From NCBI GenBank assembly GCA_026770705.1, contig JANJGN010000052.1, forward strand, positions 62,001 through 126,000: 64,000 bases of DNA. The letters are read 5' to 3'. Shown piece after piece: positions 2,071 to 61,488 of this stretch (its first letter is position 1; each line of letters begins with the position of its first letter). The translations under genes were made by a program, and so were the position numbers. Source of the DNA: Isurus oxyrinchus. Lineage: Eukaryota. The notes under the pieces are model-generated. The model made no database searches. It was not told where the DNA came from and was given only the letters and a program-made list of their open reading frames with translations.

Positions 2071-2367
2071 CTTGTACAGTTAGTACGAGGGTCCGCTCCG
2101 ATGAAACAGATGGATATCTCACTCTGCAGCTGAGAGTGTGTCCATGGTGTTTGAGTGATGGGGTCAGGGTCAGAACAGAAGTATAGGTCAGAGTGACACC
2201 ATGCTGAGTTACAGTGTTTGAGACTGATCCAGGTACGTCAGTGGGAGTGTCCCAGGTTAAGACAGGTGCTGCTGTTCCATTGCACGTTGTGTTGAAGGTG
2301 CAGCTTACATCCACAGGCTTTCCTGCAATAATTTCAGCAGGGAATATCGTGGGTTTATCTGTGAAAT
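2071..2367 (-). CDS. Siglec-like gene A, domain-2 C2-set Ig exon (gene continues off the left edge)
   Basis: tctgttag| acceptor and CAAG|gtaagt donor, 297 nt, phase 1-1. DFTDKPTIFPAEIIAGKPVDVSCTFNTTCNGTAAPVLTW...TSVLTLTPSLKHHGHTLSCRVRYP...LTVQ matches the Siglec domain-2 pattern, including the extra interdomain Cys. Confidence 0.9.
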
Positions 2368-2767
2368 CTAACAGACGGAGAATGGATCCTTTTAGAGAAA
2401 TATAACGTGAAGCATCAGTTCAAATAGAAATCACAGTCCCACAAGAGAAAGCACCTTTGCAAGGATGATATCAGAACTGAGAGGTTACAATGATCAGGAA
2501 ATTATTTTAAACAGGATTAGAGAGATCGATGAGAGTGGATAACCTGATAACTTTGATGGACACAGTCAATACATTTAATCATTGATATTAAAGTGAGTAT
2601 TAGAGGTTCCTTTAGGACTGAACTGGAAGCTATCAGCAAGTTATTGAGAATCAGACAGTGTGTTATAATAAGCTGTGTTTTGTGTTAATATGTAAACGTC
2701 ACAGTTTGTGTTAATTCCCATTGAGTGTTGAATGTGAATTGTTGAGTAATTATAACACAGCACTTAC

Positions 2768-3136
2768 CAGAAACGTGAAGCTGGGTTACAGGATAGTAGT
2801 TGTAACTATTACTGCTGTCAAATTCTATCCTGAAAAAATAAGGTCCTGCATCTTCCCGTCTGATGTTGTTTATAATCAGGGAACAGTCGCCATCTTTCAG
2901 GTCTCCAGACAGCCGGGTCCGATGGTGGAACCGTGGTAACTCGTGACTGTGATCCTTGGAGTGAAAGGCAATGGGAGATCCAGGAATCTGATTCTCATTA
3001 TTAAACCAGACTCCGACTCGTGGTTGGCTTTCCAAATGTGATGGATAACTGTAATGACATGGAATCTGTACACACGAATCTTCCTGCGCTGTCACCTCTC
3101 GTGGAGTGTCACCTTTCCACTCTTGTGACAGTCCAA
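2768..3136 (-). CDS. Siglec-like gene A, V-set Ig exon
   Basis: ctccccag| acceptor and TCTG|gtaagt donor, 369 nt, phase 1-1. Siglec hallmarks SCVQIPC, DCSLII and F-strand PYFFRIE with the essential Arg (codon 2829-2831). Confidence 0.92.
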
Positions 3137-3388
3137 CTGGGGAGAGAAATATCAATATTTAACTCTGGATGGTTTGTAGATCCACTAGACTCGATATCCA
3201 CCCCGTCCATCACTGGGGCACAGTGGCTGCAGTGTGGACCATCTACAGGACACACAGGGATCTCCCCAAGGTTTCACAATGGATGGAAGAGAATCCTGGA
3301 CACAGGAGTGGACAAGTTCATTCTACATTGGCTCATGGTCCTCAGGACCCTGTTTAGTGAAGCCAGTCTTCCACCCAACACAGTGTCT

Positions 3389-3680
3389 CCAAGTCATGTG
3401 TTTTTCAAATTATCCGTTCATGGGATGTGCCCAGCATTTATTACCCATCCCATGTCCATCAGAGGCATTTAAGAATCAATTCTATTGCTGTGGGTTTGGA
3501 GTGACATGTAGGCCAGACTGGGTAAGGGTGGAGATTTCCTTCCCTGAAGGGGATCAGTGAACCAGGCTTTTTAATCCCATTCATCTGCTGTGATGGGATT
3601 TACACCCAGGGCCCCAGAGCATCACCCTGGGCCTCTGGAATACTAGCCCAGTGACAATGCCTCTCTACTGCCGCTTCCCC
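3389..3680 (-). mobile_element. SINE-like insertion flanked by an exact 35-bp direct repeat
   Basis: ttagtgaagccagtcttccacccaacacagtgtct occurs at 3354-3388 and 3681-3715. The paralogous intron of gene B (~53938-53975) has one copy and no insert. Confidence 0.7.
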
Positions 3681-3894
3681 TTAGTGAAGCCAGTCTTCCA
3701 CCCAACACAGTGTCTACGAGACCCACCCATTGAGATCCATTCAGTGCTGATTTACAAGACAGGACAATGGATTAGGAGCCCTCAGAACTCCCCCCATTAT
3801 CACCGTCATGAATCACTAATTAGCCTAACATTCCTGTTTGCTCTTCAACACAGCTGATTAGCTAATCTGGTTCAATCTGATTGGTGCACTTTGT

Positions 3895-3995
3895 ATCTTC
3901 ATTGTCTAAGGAATCACTTTGGACCCTCATTGTCTGAGGAATCTCTTTGGATCCTCATTGTCTAAGGAATCTCTTTGGATCCTCATTGTCTAATG
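3895..3995. repeat. 29-bp tandem repeat, about 3.5 copies
   Basis: ctcattgtctaaggaatctctttggatcc repeated. Confidence 0.85.
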
Positions 3996-5169
3996 GATTA
4001 TTTCTGATCCAAACCCCATATTGTTGTATTGTTGATTCCGATGCAGCATTGTAGACTGACTTGTCCCCAAGCTCAGCACTGACCCTACTCCAGCAGACAC
4101 TGTGAAACACACTAACAAAGTGCCTCTAGCCTGAGCTCTGCATGTGTCGGAGGTGCCGCTGCGGTGGGTTCATGACTTTCAAAGATGGTGTTGTTTATTT
4201 GTTCAAACTGAACTGGGCCCCACATGAAACGCTGCTACCAGAAACTTCTTGTTCCCTGTCCTTCTGAAACATCTGTGATTCAGCAGGATTCTGAAGTTTT
4301 GCTGACAAGGGTCTTAAATTGTCTGATTGTTGAATGATACAACACAGGAGGAGCTCATTTGACCCATCGTGCATGTGCTGGCTCTTTCCCAATTCCTCTC
4401 CAGCACCTTTCACACATCCCTGCAAATTTCCCTTCAAGTATTTATCCAGTTCCCCTTCTGAAAGTTCCTGTTGAATCTGCTTCCACCGCCCTTTCAGGCA
4501 GTGAGTCAATGGTGTCTCTCTGAGCTGCAAAGTGCTCAAATTCTGTGAGATTTAAACTGTGCAGCAGATCAGAGACACTCATGATAACTCAGAATATTTG
4601 ACAGTTTTACACACAGACAGCTTTGCCTCCCTTCTCTCTTTCAGTTATCTTGTTCCCTTATTGAAGTATCTAGCAAGGTGAGAATGGACAGGAAGTGTGA
4701 CACTGAACAGCCTGTCTATTCTAGGAGCTGCTGTGTTGTCTTCATGGACAATTTTGAATAAAGGCAGCAAAGGACACAAATTTCAGGCCATTGCTATCGG
4801 AGACCTCGCAGCAGGATAGTCTTCATCCCCCAGTTTTTATCTTTGCTTCTCTACTCAACCCATCACTCCCCATCGCTCACTGACCAACGTCTGACAGCAC
4901 CTGAATTTTAAGATCCTGCTCTCGCTGCTACAATTCTGCTGAACTTTGTAACGTCCTCCAGTCCCTACAACTCTCTGAGATCTCTGATCACTTCCAATTC
5001 TGCTGTCACACAGGGAGTCAGTGTATATCAGTGAGCACAGGGGTGATGGGTGAATGGGACTTGGTGTGTGTTTGTACACTGGATCACTGCTGAATCGGTT
5101 CCCAATCACAGCTCAATAAGAATGATCCTTGACAGAGACTATTAACATTAAATCTGATGATGATATTAC

Positions 5170-5209
5170 CTTGGAGAAGTGACAGGAGGAAGTAAGATTT
5201 CCTGATCAT
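5170..5209 (-). CDS. Siglec-like gene A, leader exon coding part (whole exon 5170-5249)
   Basis: ctttcacag| acceptor. ATG ATC AGG AAA TCT TAC TTC CTC CTG TCA CTT CTC CAA G|gtaata gives MIRKSYFLLSLLQ, phase 1, joining VGLSQEW of the V exon. A paralogous exon lies at 61449-61528. Confidence 0.88.
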
Positions 5210-16555: not shown

Positions 16556-16804
16556 TCAGTTTTTCTGGAACCTGATCTGTGCGTATTCCGTGTCCTCGCT
16601 CCTGTGCACAGTCCTGTCACCGCTGGGCAGCTTTGAAAAGTTGATGTTGGTGTAGAGAAGCTCGTCGGTATTGTCGGGGTTCCCATGTCCAACATCGCCT
16701 CCCACTGGACCTTCAGAGAGAACCCGGGGAGCTGGGGTCTCCCCCTCACTAGTTGTGTCTCTGGTTGTGTTCCGGGGCTCAGTAATCAGCACGTTCTGTT
16801 CATC
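16556..16804 (-). CDS. Inhibitory Siglec-like module C, last exon with ITIM and ITSM-like motifs
   Basis: tctctgtag| acceptor, phase 0. DEQNVLITEP...DELLYTNINFSKLP...EDTEYAQIRFQKN* carries LLYTNI (ITIM) and TEYAQI (ITSM-like), as in CD33-related tails. Confidence 0.88.
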   Translation of the reverse strand, partial: DEQNVLITEPRNTTRDTTSEGETPAPRVLSEGPVGGDVGHGNPDNTDELLYTNINFSKLPSGDRTVHRSEDTEYAQIRFQKN

Positions 16805-16989
16805 CTACAGAGAAATGGAAACAGAAGACATCCTCACATCATTTACTGGCACTGATAGGGTTAAATTATTGTGCAGCCTCATTAGTGTCAGTCGTGTCTC
16901 AGTGGGTTTAAGCCTTTTTTCACTCTCTTTCTCTGTCTCTCTTTCTCTCTCGCTTTCTCTCTCTCTTTATAATTTAATCTCTATCACAC

Positions 16990-17680
16990 TCCAACAGTGC
17001 AGCACTCCCTCAATACTGACCCTCTGACAGTGCAGCACTCCCTCAATACTGACCCTCTGACAGTGCAGCACTCCCTCAGTACTGACCCTCTGACAGTCCA
17101 GCACTCCCTCAATACTGACCCTCTGACAGTGCAGCACTCCCTCAATACTGACCCTCTGACAGTGCAGCACTCCCTCAATACTGACCCTCTGACAGTGCAG
17201 CACTCCCTCAGAACTGACCCTCCGACAATGCAGTACTCCCTCAGTACTGACCCTCCAACAGTGCAGCACTCCCTCAATACTGACCCTCTGACAGTGCAGC
17301 ACTCCCTCAATACTGACCCTCTGACAGTGCAGCACTCCCTCAGTACTGACCCTCTGACAGTGCAGCACTCCCTCACTACTGACCCTCCGACAGTGCAGCA
17401 CTCCCTCAGTACTGACTCTCTGACAGTGCAGCACTCCTTCAGTACTGACCGTCTGACAGTCCAACAATCCCGCTGTACTGACCTTCTGACAGTCCAGCAC
17501 TCCCTCAGTACTGACCCTCCGACAGTGCAGCACTCCCTCAGTAATGACACTCTGACAGTGCACAACTCCCTCAGTACTGACCCTCCGACAGTGCAGCACT
17601 CCCTCAGTACTGACACTCTGACATTGCAGCACTCCCTCAGTACTGACCCTCCGACAGTGTAGCACTCCCTCACTACTGAC
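16990..17680. repeat. 33-bp minisatellite array
   Basis: About 20 tandem copies in an intron of module C. Confidence 0.95.
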
Positions 17681-17893
17681 ATCAGGTGCCCTGTCATTAT
17701 TGTGTTCAGATTTCTGGTCAAAGAGCGAGTGATGGAGGGTGACAGAGGCTGGGAGTGAGAGACAGTGCTGACCACTGAGCCATTGCTGACTTCACAGGGA
17801 GATATCTGTGTGTAACCCGGCTGAGAATCTGGTATACGTGTTGTCTACACACTGAGGTTGAAGCTTTGGAGTGAGTGTAAACAGCTCCTGTAC

Positions 17894-17975
17894 CTGGTGC
17901 TTCACAGAGAGTGACCTGGGGGTCAATGCAATGTAATTGGTCCCTGAACCTCTCTCCTCCATCGCTGTCTTTCTC
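17894..17975 (-). CDS. Module C, first cytoplasmic exon
   Basis: ttattgcag| acceptor and CAG|gtacag donor, 82 nt, phase 2-0, bridging the TM and last exons exactly. (K)RKTAMEERGSGTNYIALTPRSLSVKHQ contains a TNYIAL tyrosine motif. Confidence 0.75.
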
Positions 17976-18852
17976 CTGCAATAACACAATATCACACTGT
18001 GGTTATCATATAGCTGAGAGTCAGTGCAGCACAGACACAGAGCCCACTGTAACCTTACAGCAACGGCTGGACTGTCTCTAGTTCCAATAAGGGGTATCAG
18101 CGTGACATCACTATAATGGAAGTGTGTCATGTGATCCAATCTCAGTTTGACATTTGCTTTGAGCAGTGCACACACTCACAGCTCTGATGCCTTCAATCTT
18201 TCTCCATATGTATAACTGTTCTCGTGCCGAGTCTTGATAAACAAATCATTAACATTCTCACCAAATCCCCTATGAGTGATTGGTGTTTTCTGTCTTATAC
18301 AGTAAATAAGCCTAAGGTATAATATCATTATAATAACACGCCATATCTTTGACCCCCCCTCCACCCCTGCTCTTCCCCCCATAGCCCTTCAAATGTTCCC
18401 CCTTCAAGTATTTATCCAATTCCCCTTTTGAAAGTTCCTATTGAATCTGCTTCCAGCGCCCTTTCAGGCAGCACCTTCCAGATCACAGCAACTGATTATT
18501 ATTCATCTGGATAACGGGCAATGAAAAACACTGTCTGGATCGTAACGGATAAAGAGACCAGTTACGGAGAGGCATCTGGCGCTTAACACAAGGGAAACAA
18601 TCACCGACTTCAGGAAAGAACATTGAAGCAAATGTTTATCCCGGAGTAATCGTGCAGAGTGAGGAATCTCTGGGTCTCGTGATTGTTTACTGGATACAGG
18701 ACAATGAAAGGTTCTCTCCGGATCAGAGTGGACACAGGGATCACTTACAGAGAGGGACCTGGTGCTGATCCCAAGGGAAACAATCACCGACTTCAGGAAA
18801 GAACATTGAAGCAAATGTTTATATTAAAATCAAGTTAAATCTTCAGACTTAC

Positions 18853-18949
18853 TTTCTCACACAGATGAAGATGAAGATTCCAGCCAGGAAAACACTCAAC
18901 ATGATCCCAGCCGTGAACAATCCTACTGTCCATTTACTGGAGTCTCTAC
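18853..18949 (-). CDS. Module C, transmembrane exon (uncharged TM)
   Basis: tttttacag| acceptor and |gtaagt donor, 97 nt, phase 1-2. Encodes (C)RDSSKWTVGLFTAGIMLSVFLAGIFIFICVR(K). Confidence 0.88.
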
Positions 18950-19499
18950 CTGTAAAAACAGCCATTAATTACTGCACTACAGGTTTACAATGATGCTCCG
19001 ATGTATCTCGAGAAGCGATACACTCACTCAGTGTTTAAATACTCATTCTCGGGCAATGCTGACATTTATTGTCCATCCCTAGTTTCCCCTTGAGAAGGTG
19101 GTGGGGGGTCTTCCTCCTGAACCACTGGTTTGTCCCAAACTGGGAGACCAGTTCAGAGGGCAGGTGTGAGTTAACCATGTTGGTGTCTGAGACTGGAGTC
19201 ACATCCACATCGAGACATGCTTCCCTCCCTAAAGGGTATGTAGTCTCTACACATGTAACAACCAACCTCACTGAAATAATCGACTATCAGGTCATTATCA
19301 CACGGTGGTTTGCGGGATCTTGCTGTGCACAAATCAGTACCTGTGTTTCCTACATTACAACAGTGAGCTCACTTCGATAATGCTTCACTGGCTGTTGAAT
19401 GTTTAGTAATTTCTAAGCAATTTATGAATACAATAGTTGCATTTCAACATGTAACATTTATATATAATATTTATCAATCAAAGAATGAGAAGTTCAGCA

Positions 19500-19735
19500 A
19501 TTAAAAGGGTTGTTCAGGACAGTTAGAGAGAGAAAGGTCGTCAAGTACGGAGATTGGAAACGAAGACCTGACAGCCTTGTCCTGACAACCATTGAAGGAA
19601 AACTGAGAGCAAAAACAGAAAGGGAGAGGAAAAATTGGATGTGTGGATAACGTGGACTGAGCGAGGATTGAAGAAAACTGGATTAAAAACAACACGATCC
19701 CAATGGCTCCACGGAGACCACGGAGACAACAAACA
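19500..19735 (+). mobile_element. RTE-like LINE 3' fragment
   Basis: Translates VRERKVVKYGDWKRRPDSLVLTTIEGKLRAKTERERKNW, resembling the RTE C-terminal RK..FGH..RR...IEGK...R.R..W pattern. Confidence 0.5.
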
Positions 19736-19758
19736 AACAAATGTATCTCCACACTCAC

Positions 19759-20040
19759 ATTCCACAGTGATGGTTATGGACCCCTCCACTGCTCCATGTT
19801 CATTCTCTGCCACACACTGATAGTCTCCAGTGTCCCTGGATGTAACGTGAGGAATCACCAACCACAGCTCATTGTTGGAACTTGTTCTGTTCATTGGGAC
19901 ATTAAGATGTCGCCACGTCAGGTTAGAAGCTGGGAAGCTCTCGACAGAGCAGATTATCACTGCAGAATTCTCCTCAATTATATTGATTGATGAAGCGTTA
20001 ATCATATCAAGCGAAGTAAATGAGAGATCCTGTGGTGCAT
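19759..20040 (-). CDS. Module C, membrane-proximal C2-set Ig exon
   Basis: tttttag| acceptor and GAAT|gtgagt donor, 282 nt, phase 1-1. APQDLSF...VIICSVESFPASNLTW...DTGDYQCVAENEHG...ITVE. Confidence 0.9.
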
Positions 20041-20757
20041 CTAAAAACAAATCAAGTGTTTAATGTGAGCAAACCTATTGCACAGCAAGACTCCATGCAT
20101 CATCTCTCTGTATCTGATGTCTGAATGCATTTCCAGGTAACTTCCCTCAGGATAACGTCTTATGCCACATTTTTAATGGACACTGCCTATGTAAACTGTC
20201 ACACTGCAGTTGCATTCTCCCACCAGTAGAGGTGTTGTCCATCTAGAATGAAAGAAGCTTGCTTTCACATCCTCAGGATTTCGCAAAGGGCTGGACAGGC
20301 AATGAATTGTATTTGATTGATGGAGCACTGAGGGGTAAATCTACAATTCTCTGTTCAGGAGGTTGCTCATCCAATTCAGGGTCTTGTTGATCTGGAGTTT
20401 ACCTTCCTTCAACACAGAATCGGAGCTGATACCAAGACTCCAGTGCGGCACTGAGAGAGGAGAGGGAACTCACGTGTGTGTATCTGTGTGTTTGTGTTTC
20501 TGCACATGTGAGTGTGTTTGTGTGTGTATGCACACATGTGTCTGTGTGTGCGCATGCGCATGTGTCTGTGTGTCTAGGTCTGTCCATGAGTGAGAGTATG
20601 TGCATGTGTGTGTCTATGTGTGGGCATGAATGTGTGTGTGTGTTTGAGATGGGTGTGTATTTTCCTGTGTATGTGCTTGTATGTGTATGACTGTGTGTGG
20701 ATAATTATGCATGTGTGTGCCTACAGGTTTCTGTCTGTGTGTGTGTGTGTCTGTGTG

Positions 20758-20821
<64 letters not shown>

Positions 20822-20849
20822 AGTGATGTTGGAGTTTGCAGTAACTCAC

Positions 20850-21130
20850 GTTCCACAGTGATGGTTATGAACCCCTCCACTGCTCCATGTTCATTCTCTG
20901 CCACACACTGATAGTCTCCAGTGTCCCTGGATGTAACGTGAGGAAACACCAACCACAGCTCATTGTTGGAACTTGTTCTGTTCATTGGGACATTAAGATG
21001 TCGCCACGTCAGGTTAGAAGCTGGGAAGCTCTCGACAGAGCAGATTATCACTGCAGAATTCCCCTCAATTATATTGATCGATGAAGCGTTAATCATATCA
21101 AGAGAATTAATTGAGAGATTCTGGGTGCGT
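20850..21130 (-). pseudogene. Module C, middle C2-set exon with a 1-nt deletion
   Basis: 281 nt versus 282 in the two siblings; starts AC GCA CCC AGA instead of AT GCA CCA CAG and hits TGA after about 12 codons in the spliced frame. Splice sites are intact. Confidence 0.75.
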
Positions 21131-21948
21131 CTAAAAGAAATAAAGATTTTAATGTGAGCAAGCATAGTGCACAGCAAGACTCCATGCATCATCTCTCTGT
21201 ATCTGATGTTGGTATGCTTTTCCAGGTACCTTCCCTCATGAAAAATTACTGTCATATTTATAATGGACACTTCCTATGTAAACTGTCACACTGCAGTTGC
21301 TTCCTCCCACCAGTAGAGTTGCTAACCCTCTAGAATGAAAGAAACATCCTTTAACACTCTCAAGATGTCCCCAAGGGCTTGATAGGCAATGAATTGTATT
21401 TGATCGATGGAGCACTGAGGGCTAAATCTACATTTCTCTGTTCAGGAGGTTGCTCATCCAATTCAGGGTCTTGCTGATCTGGAGTTTACCTTCCTTCAGC
21501 ACAGAATGGGAGCTGATACCATGACTCCAGTGCAGAACTGAGAGAGGAGAGGGAGCTCACACTTGTGTGTGTACTTCTGCACGTGAGTTTGTATTTGTGT
21601 GTATGCGCGTGTCTNNNNNNNNNNNNNNNNNNNNNNNNNNNNNNNNNNNNNNNNNNNNNNNNNNNNNNNNNNNNNNNNNNNNNNNNNNNNNNNNNNNNNN
21701 NNNNNNNNNNNNNNNNNNNNNNNNNNNNNNNNNNNNNNNNNNNNNNNNNTGTGCTTGCGGGAGTGTGTGTGCATGTGTGTGTCTATGTGTGCGCATGAAT
21801 GTTTGTATGTGAGTTGAGTTTGTGTGTGTTTCTGTGTATGTGTTTGAACATATGTTTGTGTGTAAGCGTGCATGTTTGTGTCTACACATGAGTGTTTTTG
21901 CATGTGTGAGTGTGTGTGTGAGAGATGTTGAAGTCTGTGTACACTCAC

Positions 21949-22230
21949 ATTCCACAGTGATGGTGATGAATCCCTCCACTGCTCCATGTTCATTTTCTGC
22001 CACACACTGATAGTCTCCAGTGTCCCTGGATGTAACGTGAGGAATCACCAACCACAGCTCATTGTTGCAACTTGTTCTGTTCATTGGGACATTAAGATGT
22101 CGCCACGTCAGGTTAGAAGCTGGGAAGCTCTCGACAGAGCAGATTATCACTGCAGAATTCCCCTCAATTATATTGATCGATGAAGCATTAATCATTTCAA
22201 GAGAAGTAAATGTGAGATTCTGTGGAGCAT
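21949..22230 (-). CDS. Module C, first C2-set Ig exon
   Basis: ttcttag| acceptor and GAAT|gtgagt donor, 282 nt, phase 1-1; near-identical to 19759-20040. Confidence 0.88.
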
Positions 22231-27304: not shown

Positions 27305-27594
27305 GAGTGACGTCAGAGGGATGGTCTATGAAGGCGCTGCCTCGGAGGGCCATCAGCAGCTCTTGTGTGGTTATTCCGTGTAGCTTTGACTTTCCTTCCC
27401 ACTCTTACACAGCACTGCACGGAGCTTGGTATAAATATTGGTATAGATGGAAATATACCATCACATACACCAAAGATCCCAATTATGCGATGGCCACATT
27501 CGTGGGACGAGCTAAAATAATCGGCGACTTGGAAGGGAAGAATTGTTCGGTGGGGATTGACAGTCTCAGAGCTGAAGACAGTGACGTGTATTAC
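27305..27594 (+). pseudogene. MAG/Siglec-like gene D, truncated V-set exon
   Basis: cctttcag| acceptor, phase 1. GVTSEGWSMK...SCVVIPCSFDFP...HGAWY...FVGRAKIIGDLEGKNCSV.IDSLRAEDSDVYY then switches to gag sequence and stops at 27604-27606. Confidence 0.82.
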
Positions 27595-27993
27595 ACCCAA
27601 TTCTAAATCTTTTCACCAATTAGTCGTCCTCATGAAGATGTATTTTCAGCTGAAGCCGTGGGTAATAATGCAGAGGTTTAAGTTTAACTCCAGAGTAAGG
27701 GCCCAGGGAGAGTCCATCGCAACCTATACAGTGAAGTGGAAGCAGGTGACTGAGCACTGGGACCTCGGAGACACACTCAATGACATGTTGCGGGGCCGAT
27801 TGGTTTGTGTTGTTCACCCCAATGCCATTCAGAGCCGTTTACTCGCAGAAGCCGACATCGATTTGAACCGCGCCATGGAAATAGCGCCAGGCATGGAAAG
27901 TGCTGGGAGAGACTGGAGGGATTTACAGGATGTACAACATGGCACCAGTCCTCAGCTGGGACAGGAACCAACCACCGGGCGTGAGGCTCAAAC

Positions 27994-39200: not shown

Positions 39201-40694
39201 ACAGAGCTAGATAGATTCTTGATTAACAAGGGGGTGAAAGGTCATTGGGGGTAGGCAGGAATGTGAGGTTGAGGTGACAATCAGATCAGCCATGATCTTA
39301 CTGAATGGCAGAGCAGGTTCGAGGGACTGAGTGACCTACTCCTGATCCTAACTCAGATATCCAGATGTTCTCAAAGGCAATTGGGGATGGGCAACAAATA
39401 CTGGCCTAGCCAGCGACACCAACATCCCTGAAATGAATAAGAAAAAAATGTATCAATCAATTAAATTTATTGATTAATCGAACTGAAATTCCTCCAGCTG
39501 CCGTGGTGGGATTTGAACCCGTGCCTTCAAAGCATTCACCTGGGCCTCTGGATCACTGGCCTAGTGCCATTCCCATTGTGCGACTGTCTGCTATCATCAT
39601 GGCTCTTTCACATCGATGTGGAAGTCCTGATAACAGAAGCATTGGACGAGGTACAGTAAGGTGACAAATCAGGAGCTCCATTGCTCAATATGAACGGATA
39701 ATAAAGATAAATGAACATAAACCTTCCAGTCGCTAATTAGGGAGTCACTGTGGAGCCCATGAGTCCCTCGCAGCGCTATTGCAACCTTCTGGATCCCCAG
39801 TAGGGGACTCGGGGTGCAGCTGTGTCTTCCTCATCATTTGGAAAAGCCGGAATTGTTCGGGTGCCCCTTCAAACAGGCCGAAGATGCAGTGGGTGATGTC
39901 TCCCACAGGCCCTGGGAGACCTCCCCTGCCAATTTGTTTTGTAGCTTATTCTTCAACTGCGACTTTGGATCAGCTTGAAAAAGGGTGAGGCTGAGGCAAT
40001 ACCACCAGGTAAGCGTCTATCCCCTCACACGTCACCCCCCGACCCCCGTAACCGTCACAGTCCCTCCCATCGTGCTGGAGGAGCATAATGTGCACATTCC
40101 CCTCCTTCCAATCAGTCTCCTCCCTTCCTCTCTAATCCTTGATCTTATTGTGTTCGGGGTTGACATCCCAGTCCTCCTCCCTAGACTGTCTGATGTTGAC
40201 ATCCCAATGCCCCATGTAGACCTGACCTCTCTCCAACTAGAGGCCCATTGTACTGTGACTTACAGAGACCACCGGCCCCCCTCGATTCCCACCCCCACCC
40301 CTACCCTCTATATTACCTGCTCCCCACTGACAGGCTGCAGATGCCTCCCCTGACTGGGATTGTGCCACCTGCGGCCTAGTATCAAGCCACCCACCCCCAG
40401 GATGGACGTGTGTGAGGGACTGACCACGTCCTGCACACCATGCTGGGCACCACCAACCCAGGACTGCCAGGCTGTCCCCACCACACTGGACTGGGACTAG
40501 AATAGGCATGCCAAGCACAGCTCTCTAAATCGTGGCGCAGACCCACAGCACTCGCAATGTTTTGTGGCCCGAATCCTTGCTGAGGAACTGCCCAGCACTA
40601 AAATCAAAACAACTGCAGATGCTGGAAATCCAAAACAGAAACAGAAACAGAAATACCTGGAAAAACTCAGCAGGTCTGGCAGCATCGGCAGAGA

Positions 40695-41480
40695 AGTACT
40701 GAGGGAGTGCGGCACTGTCGGAGGGTATGAACTGAGGGAGAGCTGCACTGTCGGAGGGCTTGAACTGAGGAAGTGCTGCACTGTCGGATGGTTTGAACTG
40801 AGGGAGTGCTGCACTGTCGGAGGGTCTGAACTGAGGGAGTGCTGCACTGTCGCAGGGTCTGAACTGAGGGAGAGCTGCACTGTCGGAGGGTATGAACTGA
40901 GGGAGTGCTGCACTGTCGGAGGGTATGAACTGAGGGAGAGCTGCACTGTCGGAGGGCTTGAACTGAGGAAGTGCTGCACTGTCGGATGGTTTGAACTGAG
41001 GGAGTGCTGCACTGTCGCAGGGTCTGAACTGAAGGAGTGCTGCACTGTCGGAGGGTCTGAACTGAGGGAGTGCTGCACTGTCGGAGGGTCTGAAATGAGG
41101 GAGTGCTGCACTGTCAGAGGGTCTGAACTGAGAAAGTGCTGCACTGTCAGAGGGTCTGAACTGAGAGAGTGCTGCACTGTCAGAGGGTCTGAACTGAGGG
41201 AGTGCTGCACTGTCGGAGGGTTTGAACTGAGGGAGTGCTGCATTGTTGGAGGGTTTGAACTGAGGGAGTGCTGCACTGTCGGATGGTTTGAACTGAGAGA
41301 GTGCTGCACTGTCGGAGGTTCTGAACTGAGGGAGTGCTGCACTGTCGGAGGGTTTGAACTGAGGGAGTGCTGCACAGTCGGAGGGTCTGAACTGAGGGAG
41401 TGCTGCACTGTCGGAGGGTTTGAACTGAGGGAGTTCTGCATTGTCGGAGGGTCTGATCTGAGGGAGTGCTGCACTGTCTA
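40695..41480. repeat. 33-bp minisatellite array (gaactgagg variant)
   Basis: About 24 copies; source of three long spurious ORFs. Confidence 0.95.
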
Positions 41481-41820
41481 AAGAACATTGTACAAATTGC
41501 ACAAAATTTCATCTGATGCCTGTGTCTCATGCTAACATGAAGTTCATGCACACAACAGGAATATTTCTCGCTGTTTCTCTGCAGCAAGACAGCTTTGGTA
41601 TCACACCACCCACTGGCAAGAGTGTGCAGTTACAATGTGACATGTTTACATTGGAAATTTCTATTATAAAGATGGACAGAGGAATTCATCTGATTGGAAA
41701 ACGTGACAACAGGAAGCTATGTCTTTGAGCCAAGTATTTTGCAGCAAAACAAGAATTTTAATCTTTAAATATCTACAGAACAGGCTGAGCATTTTAATCA
41801 CTTGAGTTAATCAATGTAAT

Positions 41821-41826
41821 TTTATT
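41821..41826 (-). terminator. Candidate polyadenylation signal of gene B activating-type terminal exon
   Basis: tttatt (AATAAA on minus) about 385 nt after the stop at 42210. Confidence 0.55.
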
Positions 41827-42209
41827 CATAAGCCAAATGCTTCTTACAATCCATCGCAGCATGAAAAAGGTGCAGCATTCAGAAAGCACATTCCAATCAG
41901 AGAACAGAGTTTAGCAACGTCACATTTCTGTTCATTCCTATTCGATGAACAATTTCAAAAGGAAATTGGACGGAAATTGGAAATAAATTTGCAGGGATAC
42001 GGGGATAGAGCAGGGGATGGGACTGAGTGGATTGCTTTACAGAGAGACAGCATAGACTCAATGGGCCAAATGTCCTCCTCCATTGCTGGAATGACTCGAT
42101 GATACGGAGACGATTATAACCAGGACACTGACCAGTTTCATTACAACTTAACACAACATCACACGTTATTTGTCCGCACTGACTGACCAGATTGTTGCTG
42201 TACAAAGCT

Positions 42210-42349
42210 TCAAACAGTCTGTCGACTTCCTTTCACTGTTTGTCTCTCCCAGACACAGACTCCAGCGATAGTGATAACCACAGCCACAAGGAATATCACA
42301 GCTCGTATTCCCAGGATCAGGATCACGTGCAGAATCTCTCCTCCACTGT
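42210..42349 (-). CDS. Siglec-like gene B terminal exon: TM with Arg and short tyrosine-free tail (activating type)
   Basis: tttctttctgtgtgttctctag| acceptor, phase 1. (D)SGGEILHVILILGIRAVIFLVAVVITIAGVCVWERQTVKGSRQTV*, Arg codon 42303-42305. This frame is not in the ORF track. Confidence 0.85.
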
Positions 42350-43463
42350 CTAGAGAACACACAGAAAGAAATCATCACTGACTCTCCGCTTTCAATCTCT
42401 CACTCTGGCTGAACAATCAAGCTTCATATCACTGCAACATTTGCTGTAATATTGACCCATCCACTGGGATTCAATGTGGAATGAATGTTTTCATTGTAAA
42501 CACTCTAAGAGTGGACAATCGGAACTTTCCCCTTAGCGTGGAACATTGGTGAGAATGGATCATTGTGCTGTTGGACTCCCTGTCCAATGTTTCTCTCTAT
42601 TGCTGTGTACAGGATTGTGCTGTAGAAAATTCTGGAAACGTTTAGTGCCGGGTGAAAATCCATCTCGGACGTGTGTGCAAATCGGGCAGGATCGGGATGG
42701 ACTCCCCCACGGACATACACCCCCCGCTTAATAAACAGTTCCAATCTTTACCCAGAGAGAGGGGAGAATATGGAACTCGCTCCCACAGGGAATGGTTGAG
42801 GTGAATAGTAGGAAATTAGGAAGTGAAATTGCTTGAAAAGCTTGGAGATGCAAGGGTTAAGTGTTACCGTGCTACCACTGGTGGGAGAGTGTAACTACAG
42901 CGTGACGTTTACATAGGCAATCCCCATTATGAACATGGACATCATGTGAAAAATGGGCACTGGAAAGCTGAGAACTTGATGTAAGCTTTTCAGCAACAGG
43001 AATTCCCTTCCTAAACCTCTCCACTTCCCTCTTACTCTCAGATACTCAAACAAAATTTCACACAAAATCACGTAAGGAGGAATTGGGACTGGTGACTGGT
43101 CAAAGAGTTAGATTTCAGGAAGGTTCTTAAAGTAGGATAGAGAGTTGGAGAGGCAGAGAGTATCTGTGAGTATCTCTGTGCATCTGAGTGTCTGTAATAG
43201 ACTTTGCAATTTCCATATTCTTCCATAAATATGAAAGGGAACACAAATCCCAGAATCCAGGTCAACTCTCCGGTGCAGCACTGAGGGAGGTCAGGTAATC
43301 CACAGGGCAGTATGTGATAGTGTGTTTGTTTGTGAGTGTGTCTTTGTGTGTGCTCATAGATGTGGGATTGTGTGTCTGCAGGTGTCTATTTAAGGCTGGA
43401 TATTTATGTGTGTTTTTGTAGTGTTTCAATCTGAGAGAGATGTTGAAGTTTATCTTAACTAAC

Positions 43464-43615
43464 GTTCCACAGTGATGGTTATGAACCCCTCCACTGCTCC
43501 ATGTTCATTCTCTGAGCACACTGATAGTCTCCAGTGTCCCTGGATGTAACGTGAGGAATCACCAACCACAGCTCATTGTTGGAACTTGTTCTGTTCATTG
43601 TGATATTCAGATGTC
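43464..43615 (-). pseudogene. Broken C2-set exon remnant in gene B
   Basis: Only the 3' half (HLNITMNRTSSNNELWLVIPHVTSRDTGDYQC) matches the module C exons. The 5' half and acceptor are missing and there is a 1-nt deletion after the Cys codon. Confidence 0.8.
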
Positions 43616-43938
43616 AGGACCGGACTCAACAAGACAGATTGCAGGTTTACCAACAGAAAGTGAAAAACAATTTATATTTAAAGGGAAGAGAGTGCTGGTT
43701 AATCAGCAAGTGGTCTCTGATTGGAGGAGGTGTTGCCATGGAAAATAATGTGTGTGAGATGTAAAGTTTAGACAGCTTGTCCCTTCATTCAGCAACAATC
43801 AAATAAAGATCAGTTAACTTCTATCGACTGTGAAGCACTTTGAGAGGTCTGAGAATGTGGATACTGAGAACAGGCTGCACTGTCAGAGGGTCAGCGCTGA
43901 GGGAGCGCTGATGTAGAATGAAAGGTGTCTGTACTTAC

Positions 43939-44235
43939 CTTGCACAGTTAGTACGAGGGTCCGCTCCGATGCAACAGATGGATATCTCACTCTGCAGCTG
44001 AGAGTGTGTCTGTGGTGTTTGAGTGATGGGATCAGGGTCAGAACAGAAGTATAGGTCAGAGTGACACCATGCTGAGTTACAGTGTTTGAGACTGATCCAC
44101 GTACGTCAGTGGGAGTGTCCCAGGTTAAGACAGGTGCTGCTGTTCCATTGCACGTTGTGTTGAAGGTGCAGCTTACATCCACAGGCTTTCCTGCAATAAT
44201 TTCAGCAGGGAATATCGTGGGTTTATCTGTGAAAT
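43939..44235 (-). CDS. Gene B, domain-2 C2-set Ig exon
   Basis: 297 nt, phase 1-1, canonical splice sites; differs from the gene A exon at about 4 residues. Confidence 0.9.
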
Positions 44236-44963: not shown

Positions 44964-45329
44964 CAGAAACGTGAACCTGGGTTACAGGGTAATAGTTATG
45001 GCTCGGACCATTGTCAAATTCTATTCTGAAAAAATAAGGTCCTGCATCTTCCCATGTGATGTTGTTTATAATCAGGGAACAGTCGCCATCTTTCAGGTCT
45101 CCAGACAGCCGGGTCCGATGGTGGAACCGTGGTAACTCGTGACTGTGATCCTTGGAGTGAAAGGCTATAGACGATGTTCTCCATTCCTCATTATTAAGCC
45201 AGACTCCACGTCGCGGTTGGTTTTCCAGACATGATGGATAACTATAATGACATGGAATCTGTACACAGGAACCTTCCTGCACTGTCACCTCTCGTGGAGT
45301 GTCACCTTTCCACTCTTGTGAGGGTTCAG
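44964..45329 (-). CDS. Gene B, V-set exon V4 (next to C2)
   Basis: 366 nt, phase 1-1, ag/gt intact. AEPSQEW...SCVQIPC...WLNNEEWRTSSIAF...PYFFRIEFDNGPSHNYY; Arg present. Confidence 0.88.
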
Positions 45330-47267: not shown

Positions 47268-47636
47268 CAGAAACGTGAAGCTGGGTTACAGGGTAATAGT
47301 TATGGCTCGGACCATTGTCAATTTCTATTCTGAAAAAATAAGGTCCTGCATCTTCCCGTCTGATGTTGTTTATAATCAGGGAACAGTCGCCATCTTTCAG
47401 GTCTCCAGACAGCCGGGTCCGATGGCGGAACCGTGGTAACTCGTGACTGTGATCCTTGGAGTGAAAGGCAATGGGAGCCCAGGGAATCTGTTTCTCATTA
47501 TTAAACCAGAGTCCACCTCGCGGTTGGTTTTCCAGACACGATGGATAACTGTAATGACATGGAATCTGTACACACGAACCTTCCTGAGCTGTCACCTCTC
47601 GTGGAGTGTCACCTTTCCACTCTTGTGACAGTCCAA
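47268..47636 (-). CDS. Gene B, V-set exon V3
   Basis: 369 nt, phase 1-1. WFNNEKQIPWAPIAF...PYFFRIEIDNGPSHNYY; Arg present. Confidence 0.85.
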
Positions 47637-49573: not shown

Positions 49574-49942
49574 CAGAAACGTGAAGCTGGGTTACAGGGT
49601 AATAGTTATGGCTCGGACCATTGTCAAATTCTATTCTGAAAAAATAAGGTCCTGCATCTTCCCGTCTGATGTTGTTTATAATCAGGGAACAGTCGCCATC
49701 TTTCAGGTCTCCAGACAGCCGGGTCCGATGGCGGAACCGTGGTAACTCGTGACTGTGATCCTTGGAGTGAAAGGCAATGGGAGCCCAGGGAATCTGTTTC
49801 TCATTATTAAACCAGAGTCCACCTCGCGGTTGGTTTTCCAGACACGATGGATAACTGTAATGACATGGAATCTGTACACACGAACCTTCCTGAGCTGTCA
49901 CCTCTCGTGGAGTGTCACCTTTCCACTCTTGTGACAGTCCAA
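49574..49942 (-). CDS. Gene B, V-set exon V2
   Basis: 369 nt, phase 1-1; protein identical to V3 except IEFD versus IEID. Confidence 0.85.
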
Positions 49943-53346: not shown

Positions 53347-53721
53347 CAGAAACGTGAAGCTGGGTTTCAGGACGGTCATTGTATCTATTCCTGTTGTCAA
53401 ATTCTAGGCTGAATAAATAATATCCTGCATCTTCCCGTCTGATGTTGTTTATAATCAGGTAACAGTCGCCATCTTTCAGGTTTCCAGACAGCCGGGTCCG
53501 ATGGTGGAACTGTGGTAACTCGCGATTATGATCCTTGGAGTGAAAGGCTATAGACCGTTCATTCCATTTTTCCCAATTCCTTCTCATATACCAGATTCCG
53601 ACTGGTGATCTCGCTACTAAATATGATGGATAACTGTAATTACATGGAATCTGTACACACGAACCTTCCTGCGCTGTCACCTCTCCTGGAGTGTCACCTT
53701 TCCACACTTGTGATAGTCCAA
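53347..53721 (-). CDS. Gene B, V-set exon V1 (next to leader; essential Arg replaced by Ser)
   Basis: 375 nt, phase 1-1, open, ag/gt intact. WYMRRNWEKWNERSIAF...GYYLFSLEFDNRNRYNDRP; Ser codon 53408-53410. Confidence 0.85.
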
Positions 53722-61448: not shown

Positions 61449-61488
61449 CTTGGAGAAGTGACAGGAGGAAGTAATATTTCCCGATCAT
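61449..61488 (-). CDS. Gene B, leader exon coding part (whole exon 61449-61528)
   Basis: MIGKYYFLLSLLQ with G|gtaata donor, phase 1. The region ~60480-62070 is collinear with gene A ~4270-5780. Confidence 0.88.

Follow-up and report, generated by a model that had tools for sequence, protein, structure and literature searches.

The window, that is, the whole 64,000-nucleotide stretch of DNA analyzed here, carries on its minus strand a gene with the exon order leader-V-V-V-V-C2-TM that ends in an exon encoding a transmembrane segment (TM) with a single Arg. The seven exons of this Arg-TM gene join in frame into 651 amino acids with no internal stops, and all their acceptors and donors are canonical. 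Toward the left of the window lie a module with an ITIM tail and part of another family member. The features are the following:

61449..61488, minus strand: leader exon, coding part (ATG to phase-1 donor); a leader-like loose contig end lies at the V acceptor
53347..53721, minus strand: V exon 1, N-terminal, with the F-strand Arg replaced by Ser
49574..49942, minus strand: V exon 2, F-strand Arg kept
47268..47636, minus strand: V exon 3, in a 2.3-kb tandem unit, F-strand Arg kept
44964..45329, minus strand: V exon 4, membrane-proximal, F-strand Arg kept; V-to-C2 junction found in contigs
43939..44235, minus strand: C2-set exon (Siglec domain 2, both extra Cys)
43455..43740, minus strand: remnant of a dead C2b exon, frameshifted and lacking its 5' half and a donor; the observed junction passes over it
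42210..42349, minus strand: Arg-TM terminal exon, coding part (stalk, TM with one Arg, 12-residue Tyr-free tail and stop), from translation, hydropathy and the splice junction to 43939
41806..42209, minus strand: 3' UTR of the Arg-TM exon, from an X7 contig spanning C2, TM and UTR
19759..22230, minus strand: three C2b exons of a headless inhibitory module, the middle one a base short at its 5' end
18853..18949, minus strand: uncharged TM exon of the inhibitory module
17894..17975, minus strand: first cytoplasmic exon of the inhibitory module
16556..16804, minus strand: terminal cytoplasmic exon, encoding the ITIM LLYTNI and the ITSM-like motif TEYAQI
2071..5209, minus strand: next family member (leader, V and C2 exons), which belongs to a third TM class and runs on to the left of the window

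Minus-strand translation of 42398-42150 gives DSGGEILHVILILGIRAVIFLVAVVITIAGVCVWERQTVKGSRQTV and a stop, and the terminal exon itself (42349-42210, phase 1) encodes (D)SGGEILHVILILGIRAVIFLVAVVITIAGVCVWERQTVKGSRQTV-stop. Its acceptor consists of a polypyrimidine tract and CTAG, and its phase fits that of the C2 exon's GTAAGT donor at 43939. The initial annotation had placed one Arg in the N-terminal part of the TM, and this sole TM Arg is indeed the eighth residue of the best 21-residue hydropathy window (mean 2.95). Translation also bore out the proposed tail, 12 amino acids after Trp with Tyr absent, and the expected poly(A) signal has a candidate in AATAAA at 41826-41821, 383 nt past the stop. 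A GPI signal was ruled out by the polar tail after the TM and a class I PDZ motif by the Gln at position -2. Pfam searches of this exon and of the ITIM exon gave no meaningful match. The 3' UTR of the ITIM exon aligns with 41942-41801 over 145 nt at 77% identity; in 664 kb of the contig C52 this block was found only behind Arg-type and ITIM-type terminal exons (22 matches). Being common to the 3' UTRs of both exon types, it suggests that they share an ancestral 3' end. The reading frame with its Arg was open in all 30 of the best 30 copies among 40 scored, and the 21-nt core of the exon had 229 matches in the genome and none in a reversed control, so that the exon is not a product of chance.

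Splicing was assessed on Logan contigs of six runs, guessed to be RNA except for X14. The 42349/43939 junction, which had been proposed as a check, was found with GT..AG ends in runs X1 and X2 (one sample) and X7, and also in X5, from another organism, with contigs aligned to a second gene copy; it thus occurs in four of the six runs, covering three studies and two organisms. Runs X14 (probably DNA) and X11 cover the region and do not contain it. One 850-nt contig of X7 is continuous through C2, TM and 3' UTR, and the V-to-C2 joint is seen in X1, X2 and X7 and absent from X14. Loose contig ends at the V acceptor read as the end of a V exon and as the end of a leader, which suggests that V-V and leader-V joints exist as well. 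Because family copies are 97-100% identical, introns included, the junction contigs are assignable to the family and not to this gene copy. Together with the 651-residue open frame, the splice in these putative RNA contigs agrees with the earlier proposal that the terminal exon is joined to Siglec-type Ig exons.

The Siglec assignment made at the outset was also upheld by the ectodomain. The V exon matched the Pfam V-set and Ig_CD22 profiles above cut-off, C2-set_2 was also matched, and the top 18 PDB matches of the V exon were all Siglecs, its F-strand Arg aligning with the Arg of Siglec-5, Siglec-8 and CD33. The best matches of V plus C2 were CD33 (E 1e-26), MAG (2e-24) and Siglec-5 (2e-23), with Siglec-15 at E 8e-11. 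A white-shark relative (V+C2+TM) scored 97 bits with CD33, 90 with MAG, 86 with Siglec-5, 45 with Siglec-15 and 43 with CD22, the 97 and 90 bits being too close to separate a CD33-related clade from MAG. In Siglecs, the B-E intrasheet Cys pair, the V-to-C2 interdomain pair and the A- and G-strand aromatics have structural roles. Among 39 intact V exons (broken ones were left out), the B and E Cys are present in 39, the interdomain Cys in 38, the A-strand Trp in 39 and the G-strand Tyr in 33, and both C2 Cys occur in 21 of 21 C2 domains. The F-strand Arg was found in 34 of the 39 V exons and in 15 of 19 N-terminal ones; in the Arg-TM gene V2 to V4 have it and the outermost V1 has Ser. The family has every sequence feature of Siglecs examined: V-set and C2-set homology, F-strand Arg, Cys pattern and aromatics.

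The gene belongs to a very large family. Searches of the 4.98-Gb assembly counted pattern matches, broken copies and possibly haplotype duplicates included, and every reversed control gave 0: besides the Arg-TM core, there were 224 matches to the ITIM-type TM, 112 to the third-type TM, 392 to the ITIM exon (two mismatches allowed; some genes have two) and 749 to the V exon. Exact matches are spread over the whole length of contig C52 (4.17 Mb), 65 of them to the Arg-TM and 55 to the ITIM-type TM. In the 664 kb studied there, 16 Arg-type, 9 ITIM-type and 6 third-type units are interleaved on both strands. Leader, all V exons, C2 and TM are open in 7 of the 16 Arg-type units and the other nine are defective; with only seven fully open, many Arg-type units are broken. 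Five of the nine ITIM-type units have an open leader, V and first C2 (later C2 exons were checked in part) and three are headless. The family is spread over many small contigs, and the main array contigs are unplaced; a lone V match on contig C25 is a fragment without neighbours. Short tandem repeat arrays occur in the window at 926-1860, 16986-17680 and 40500-41480, and many LINE and LTR fragments lie between the genes; these elements are possible substrates for unequal crossing-over. V exons 2 to 4 of the Arg-TM gene derive from the 2.3-kb tandem unit, and a near-twin of the gene with five V exons lies at C52:599939-620557.

An ITIM module with related C2 exons had been noted 20 kb away. Its position stands, but the module (16556-22230) is headless, without leader, V or first C2 exon and with one C2 exon frameshifted, and its C2 exons are kin to the dead remnant at 43455-43740, not to the spliced C2 exon. 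It is probably a duplicated fragment. Since it is 5'-truncated, the true inhibitory partners are neighbours outside the window, where intact ITIM-type genes lie at C52:2928-17844, 149925-167004 and 172864-197644. The layout of a headless ITIM module and an Arg gene recurs twice more in the 664 kb; we think it improbable that Arg-type genes use such modules, which lie 20-25 kb downstream of them, as alternative 3' ends and so give both signs from one gene. The first cytoplasmic exon at 17894-17975 has an extra Tyr (TNYIAL), and no Tyr is present in the neighbouring copies examined. Three ITIM-type genes (C52:365252-370436, 430741-436370 and 487158-492936) have duplicated pairs of cytoplasmic and terminal exons, that is, two alternative tails differing in sequence. 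Between the ITIM module and the Arg gene lie retroelement pieces and, at 27313-27600 on the plus strand, a truncated sialoadhesin/MAG-like V exon (best match E 2e-10) interrupted by retroelement-like sequence; it represents a different Siglec subfamily, with five copies in the 664 kb. The third class combines an uncharged TM with a tail carrying the Tyr motifs VYEN, LYAN and SVYGNL (C52:57380-57510 and downstream exons).

The V domains of Arg-type and ITIM-type genes are, by sequence comparison, intermixed and up to 99% identical. Proximal V identity is 91.8% between the two classes and 91.1% and 92.8% within them, and C2 identity between them is 97.1%; the V2 protein (49574..49942) is 99.2% identical to a V domain of the ITIM-type gene at C52:496268. 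In AU tests of all three domain sets (proximal V, distal V and C2), grouping the members of either class into a single clade was rejected (p 0.0004-0.033), though resolution in these trees is poor. The proximal V tree has 10 label changes against 8.9 in shuffles, and the C2 tree has 6 against 8.9, a mild clustering by class. Variation is concentrated in the B-C and C-C' loops, and pN/pS was 0.46 for proximal V, 0.77 for distal V and 0.94 for the C-C' loop. Positive selection is unsupported, as all pairwise pN/pS values are below 1. The family has the sequence makeup of paired receptors, namely clustered genes with near-identical ectodomains and either ITIM tails or short tails with a charged TM. 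The paired activating and inhibitory system first proposed for this locus is supported by the near-identical ectodomains that activating-type and inhibitory-type genes share, but it comprises hundreds of copies and not one pair.

The Arg-TM exon is not restricted to this species. A database search with the exon returned nine proteins, all from sharks, and a search with the white-shark relative returned 92, all the named ones from sharks and rays. The 91-96% identity of the Carcharodon relatives of the exon supports a shark, in line with the cartilaginous fish guessed from the letters. Among 97 database relatives, 13 have the Arg-TM (Carcharodon 3, Scyliorhinus 3 from two species, Chiloscyllium 6 from two species, and Hypanus 1), so that conservation of the exon extends over three shark orders and to a stingray, and ITIM/ITSM-tailed relatives are present in the same groups. 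The Arg (R15) is invariant in a seven-row alignment, while the tails of the 13 relatives vary in length and have no Tyr motif except in one read-through model. In the bamboo shark Chiloscyllium punctatum, the Arg-TM exon ends CD22-like, sialoadhesin-like and CEACAM5-like models (P0006-P0009; automatic annotation). Human FFAR1-3 flank CD22 and MAG. In the shark, a small outlying group of third-class members lies beside FFAR2/3-like genes at C34:15134560-15293758, on a 19.9-Mb scaffold, and the scan, which covered 119 of 275 candidate frames, placed a chemerin-receptor-like gene about 210 kb away; this group is a possible chromosomal anchor of the cluster.

We consider the gene a member of the Arg-anchor class of a Siglec-like family of several hundred copies, likely activating and predicted to signal through FcR-gamma or zeta, set against ITIM-tailed siblings; we give this reading a probability of about 0.68. 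According to a review (PMC13107469), CD89, NKp30 and NKp46 pair an Arg of the top TM half with the Asp residues of gamma or zeta, DAP12 partners have a central Lys, and NKG2D uses an Arg with DAP10. The Arg-TM exon follows the first pattern, with an Arg in the upper TM half, no cytoplasmic motif and adaptor-like TM exons in the genome; the central Lys of DAP12 coupling is absent, the residue being an Arg of the upper half. One zeta-like and two FcR-gamma-like TM exons were found, all with Asp, the latter being 89% identical to catshark FCER1G. The FcR-gamma-like exons (C1723:88538-88642 and C1648:27623-27727) encode an identical protein on small contigs and are duplicate genes or haplotypes; tblastn did not find the ITAM exon that would belong to the FcR-gamma-like gene. 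When the TM exon was modelled in a complex with two TM peptides of FcR-gamma, without folded controls, the score was 0.14 against a mark of 0.34, which we count neither for nor against this adaptor. Given the position of the Arg and the FcR-gamma-like exons, FcR-gamma or zeta would be the likelier adaptor, somewhat favored overall, and DAP12/DAP10 and no adaptor at all are about equally unlikely.

The closest alternative is the same paired system with an Arg class coupled to DAP12 or DAP10, as in mammalian activating Siglecs. Human Siglec-14 has a TM Arg. It nevertheless signals through DAP12 (PMC13358205), so that the rules on Arg position have exceptions, and human Siglec-15 and -16 likewise use DAP12 (PMC13233462, PMC13358205), to which the DAP10-bound Arg of NKG2D may be added (PMC13107469). 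The shark Arg, however, is not central but lies in the upper TM half, and no DAP10- or DAP12-like exon came out of three genome searches, all of them weak and no proof of absence: a PF07213 profile search (no convincing match), an ITAM pattern search (no match) and a search with a TM motif (3 matches versus 33 in the control, as by chance). We regard such coupling as rather unlikely. A non-signalling Arg class, made of decoy, adhesion or uptake receptors that compete with the ITIM forms for ligand and in which the Arg is structural, is less probable still: many Arg-type units are broken and a buried charge can serve self-assembly or snorkelling, yet, from three shark orders to a ray, the Arg never changes whereas the tail is free to vary, and the near 1:1 count of Arg-TM and ITIM-type TM exons fits pairing. 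We think it very improbable that most of the array merely reflects recent segmental duplication or a redundant assembly and that few of its genes work, for although the copies are nearly identical down to their introns, nine of 16 sampled Arg-type units are defective, and the family sits on many small contigs with the FcR-gamma-like exon also found twice, C52 alone holds the dense array counted above, 38 of 39 intact V exons encode distinct proteins with framework pN/pS below 1, and many variant family contigs occur in the putative RNA runs.

Under the preferred reading, an activating Arg class coupled to FcR-gamma or zeta, the V domains would bind sialylated glycans through the F-strand Arg. 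The absence of this residue from the N-terminal V of the Arg-TM gene counts against such a role. ITIM/ITSM forms would recruit SHP-1/2 and restrain the response to self sialic acid, and the tail-less Arg forms would assemble with an adaptor, their TM Arg engaging the paired Asp residues of a dimer of FcR-gamma (or zeta) whose ITAM recruits Syk. The Arg forms could then be counter-traps against microbes exploiting their inhibitory siblings, and unequal crossing-over, exon shuffling and conversion may keep swapping V exons between the tail types.

CD33-related Siglecs in non-mammals were reportedly treated by Cao et al. in 2009. Our literature search found no description of Siglec clusters or activating Siglecs in sharks or rays, subscription papers, which may note part of this, lying outside it; a term search of PMC4536121 gave no relevant match. 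A whale shark paper mentions Siglecs once (PMC8455134), teleost fish are described as lacking inhibitory CD33-related Siglecs (PMC7226832) and a 2014 survey of the shark sequences of that time reports no FcR-gamma chain (PMC4016189). Contrary to this last absence, an FcR-gamma-like exon is present in this shark genome and annotated in catshark. Paired Siglecs have so far been described from mammals. A broader proposal, to which we give slightly less than even odds, is that sharks and rays built a paired Siglec system of KIR/LILR/CHIR scale independently of mammals and before the shark-ray split, with hundreds of genes mixing V exons (up to five in tandem) over three tail modules and signalling through FcR-gamma, not DAP12, and with the Arg exon as a portable activating module grafted onto CD22-like and sialoadhesin-like ectodomains in bamboo shark. 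If true, the oldest jawed lineage would have enlarged the checkpoint on self sialic acid, together with its activating counter-traps, about a hundredfold. A wealth of natural variants would then be available for testing the counter-trap hypothesis and the adaptor rule on Arg position, and the family would supply candidate NK or myeloid receptors of sharks.

Siglec-15 is a single gene without an inhibitory twin, a conserved activating Siglec of fish and mammals, and Siglec-12 is a single gene with an ITIM-type tail. Siglec-15 shares with the shark family the architecture of V, C2 and charged TM, but it is a much weaker match to the shark V+C2 than CD33 and it uses a conserved Lys with DAP10/12, unlike the shark Arg (PMC7226832). 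Siglec-12 shares tandem V domains, two in its case, and gives its name to the V-V-C2-TM relatives in Carcharodon, a RefSeq label assigned automatically. The human pairs Siglec-5/Siglec-14 and Siglec-11/Siglec-16 resemble the shark family in plan, their V domains being near-identical and homogenized by conversion, their tails opposite and the TM of the short form charged (PMC6288428, PMC13358205, PMC13233462). Yet humans have two such pairs where the shark has about 230, 220 and 110 TM exons of the three classes, up to four or five tandem V domains and a third tail class, and the predicted shark adaptor is FcR-gamma, not DAP12. Since the search with the Arg-TM exon matched shark relatives only, an origin independent of the human paired Siglecs is likely for the shark Arg-TM. 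An Arg near the top of the TM for gamma or zeta is shared with CD89, NKp46 and NKp30 (PMC13107469), and the mixture of ITIM and charged-TM forms with other receptor families. These are LILR/PIR, chicken CHIR, teleost LITR/NITR and skate MDIR, all of them large clusters. To our knowledge, neither their ectodomains nor those of CD89, NKp46 and NKp30 are Siglec-type lectin V domains; unlike LILR, CHIR, LITR/NITR and MDIR, the shark ectodomains carry the Siglec Cys pattern and the F-strand Arg.
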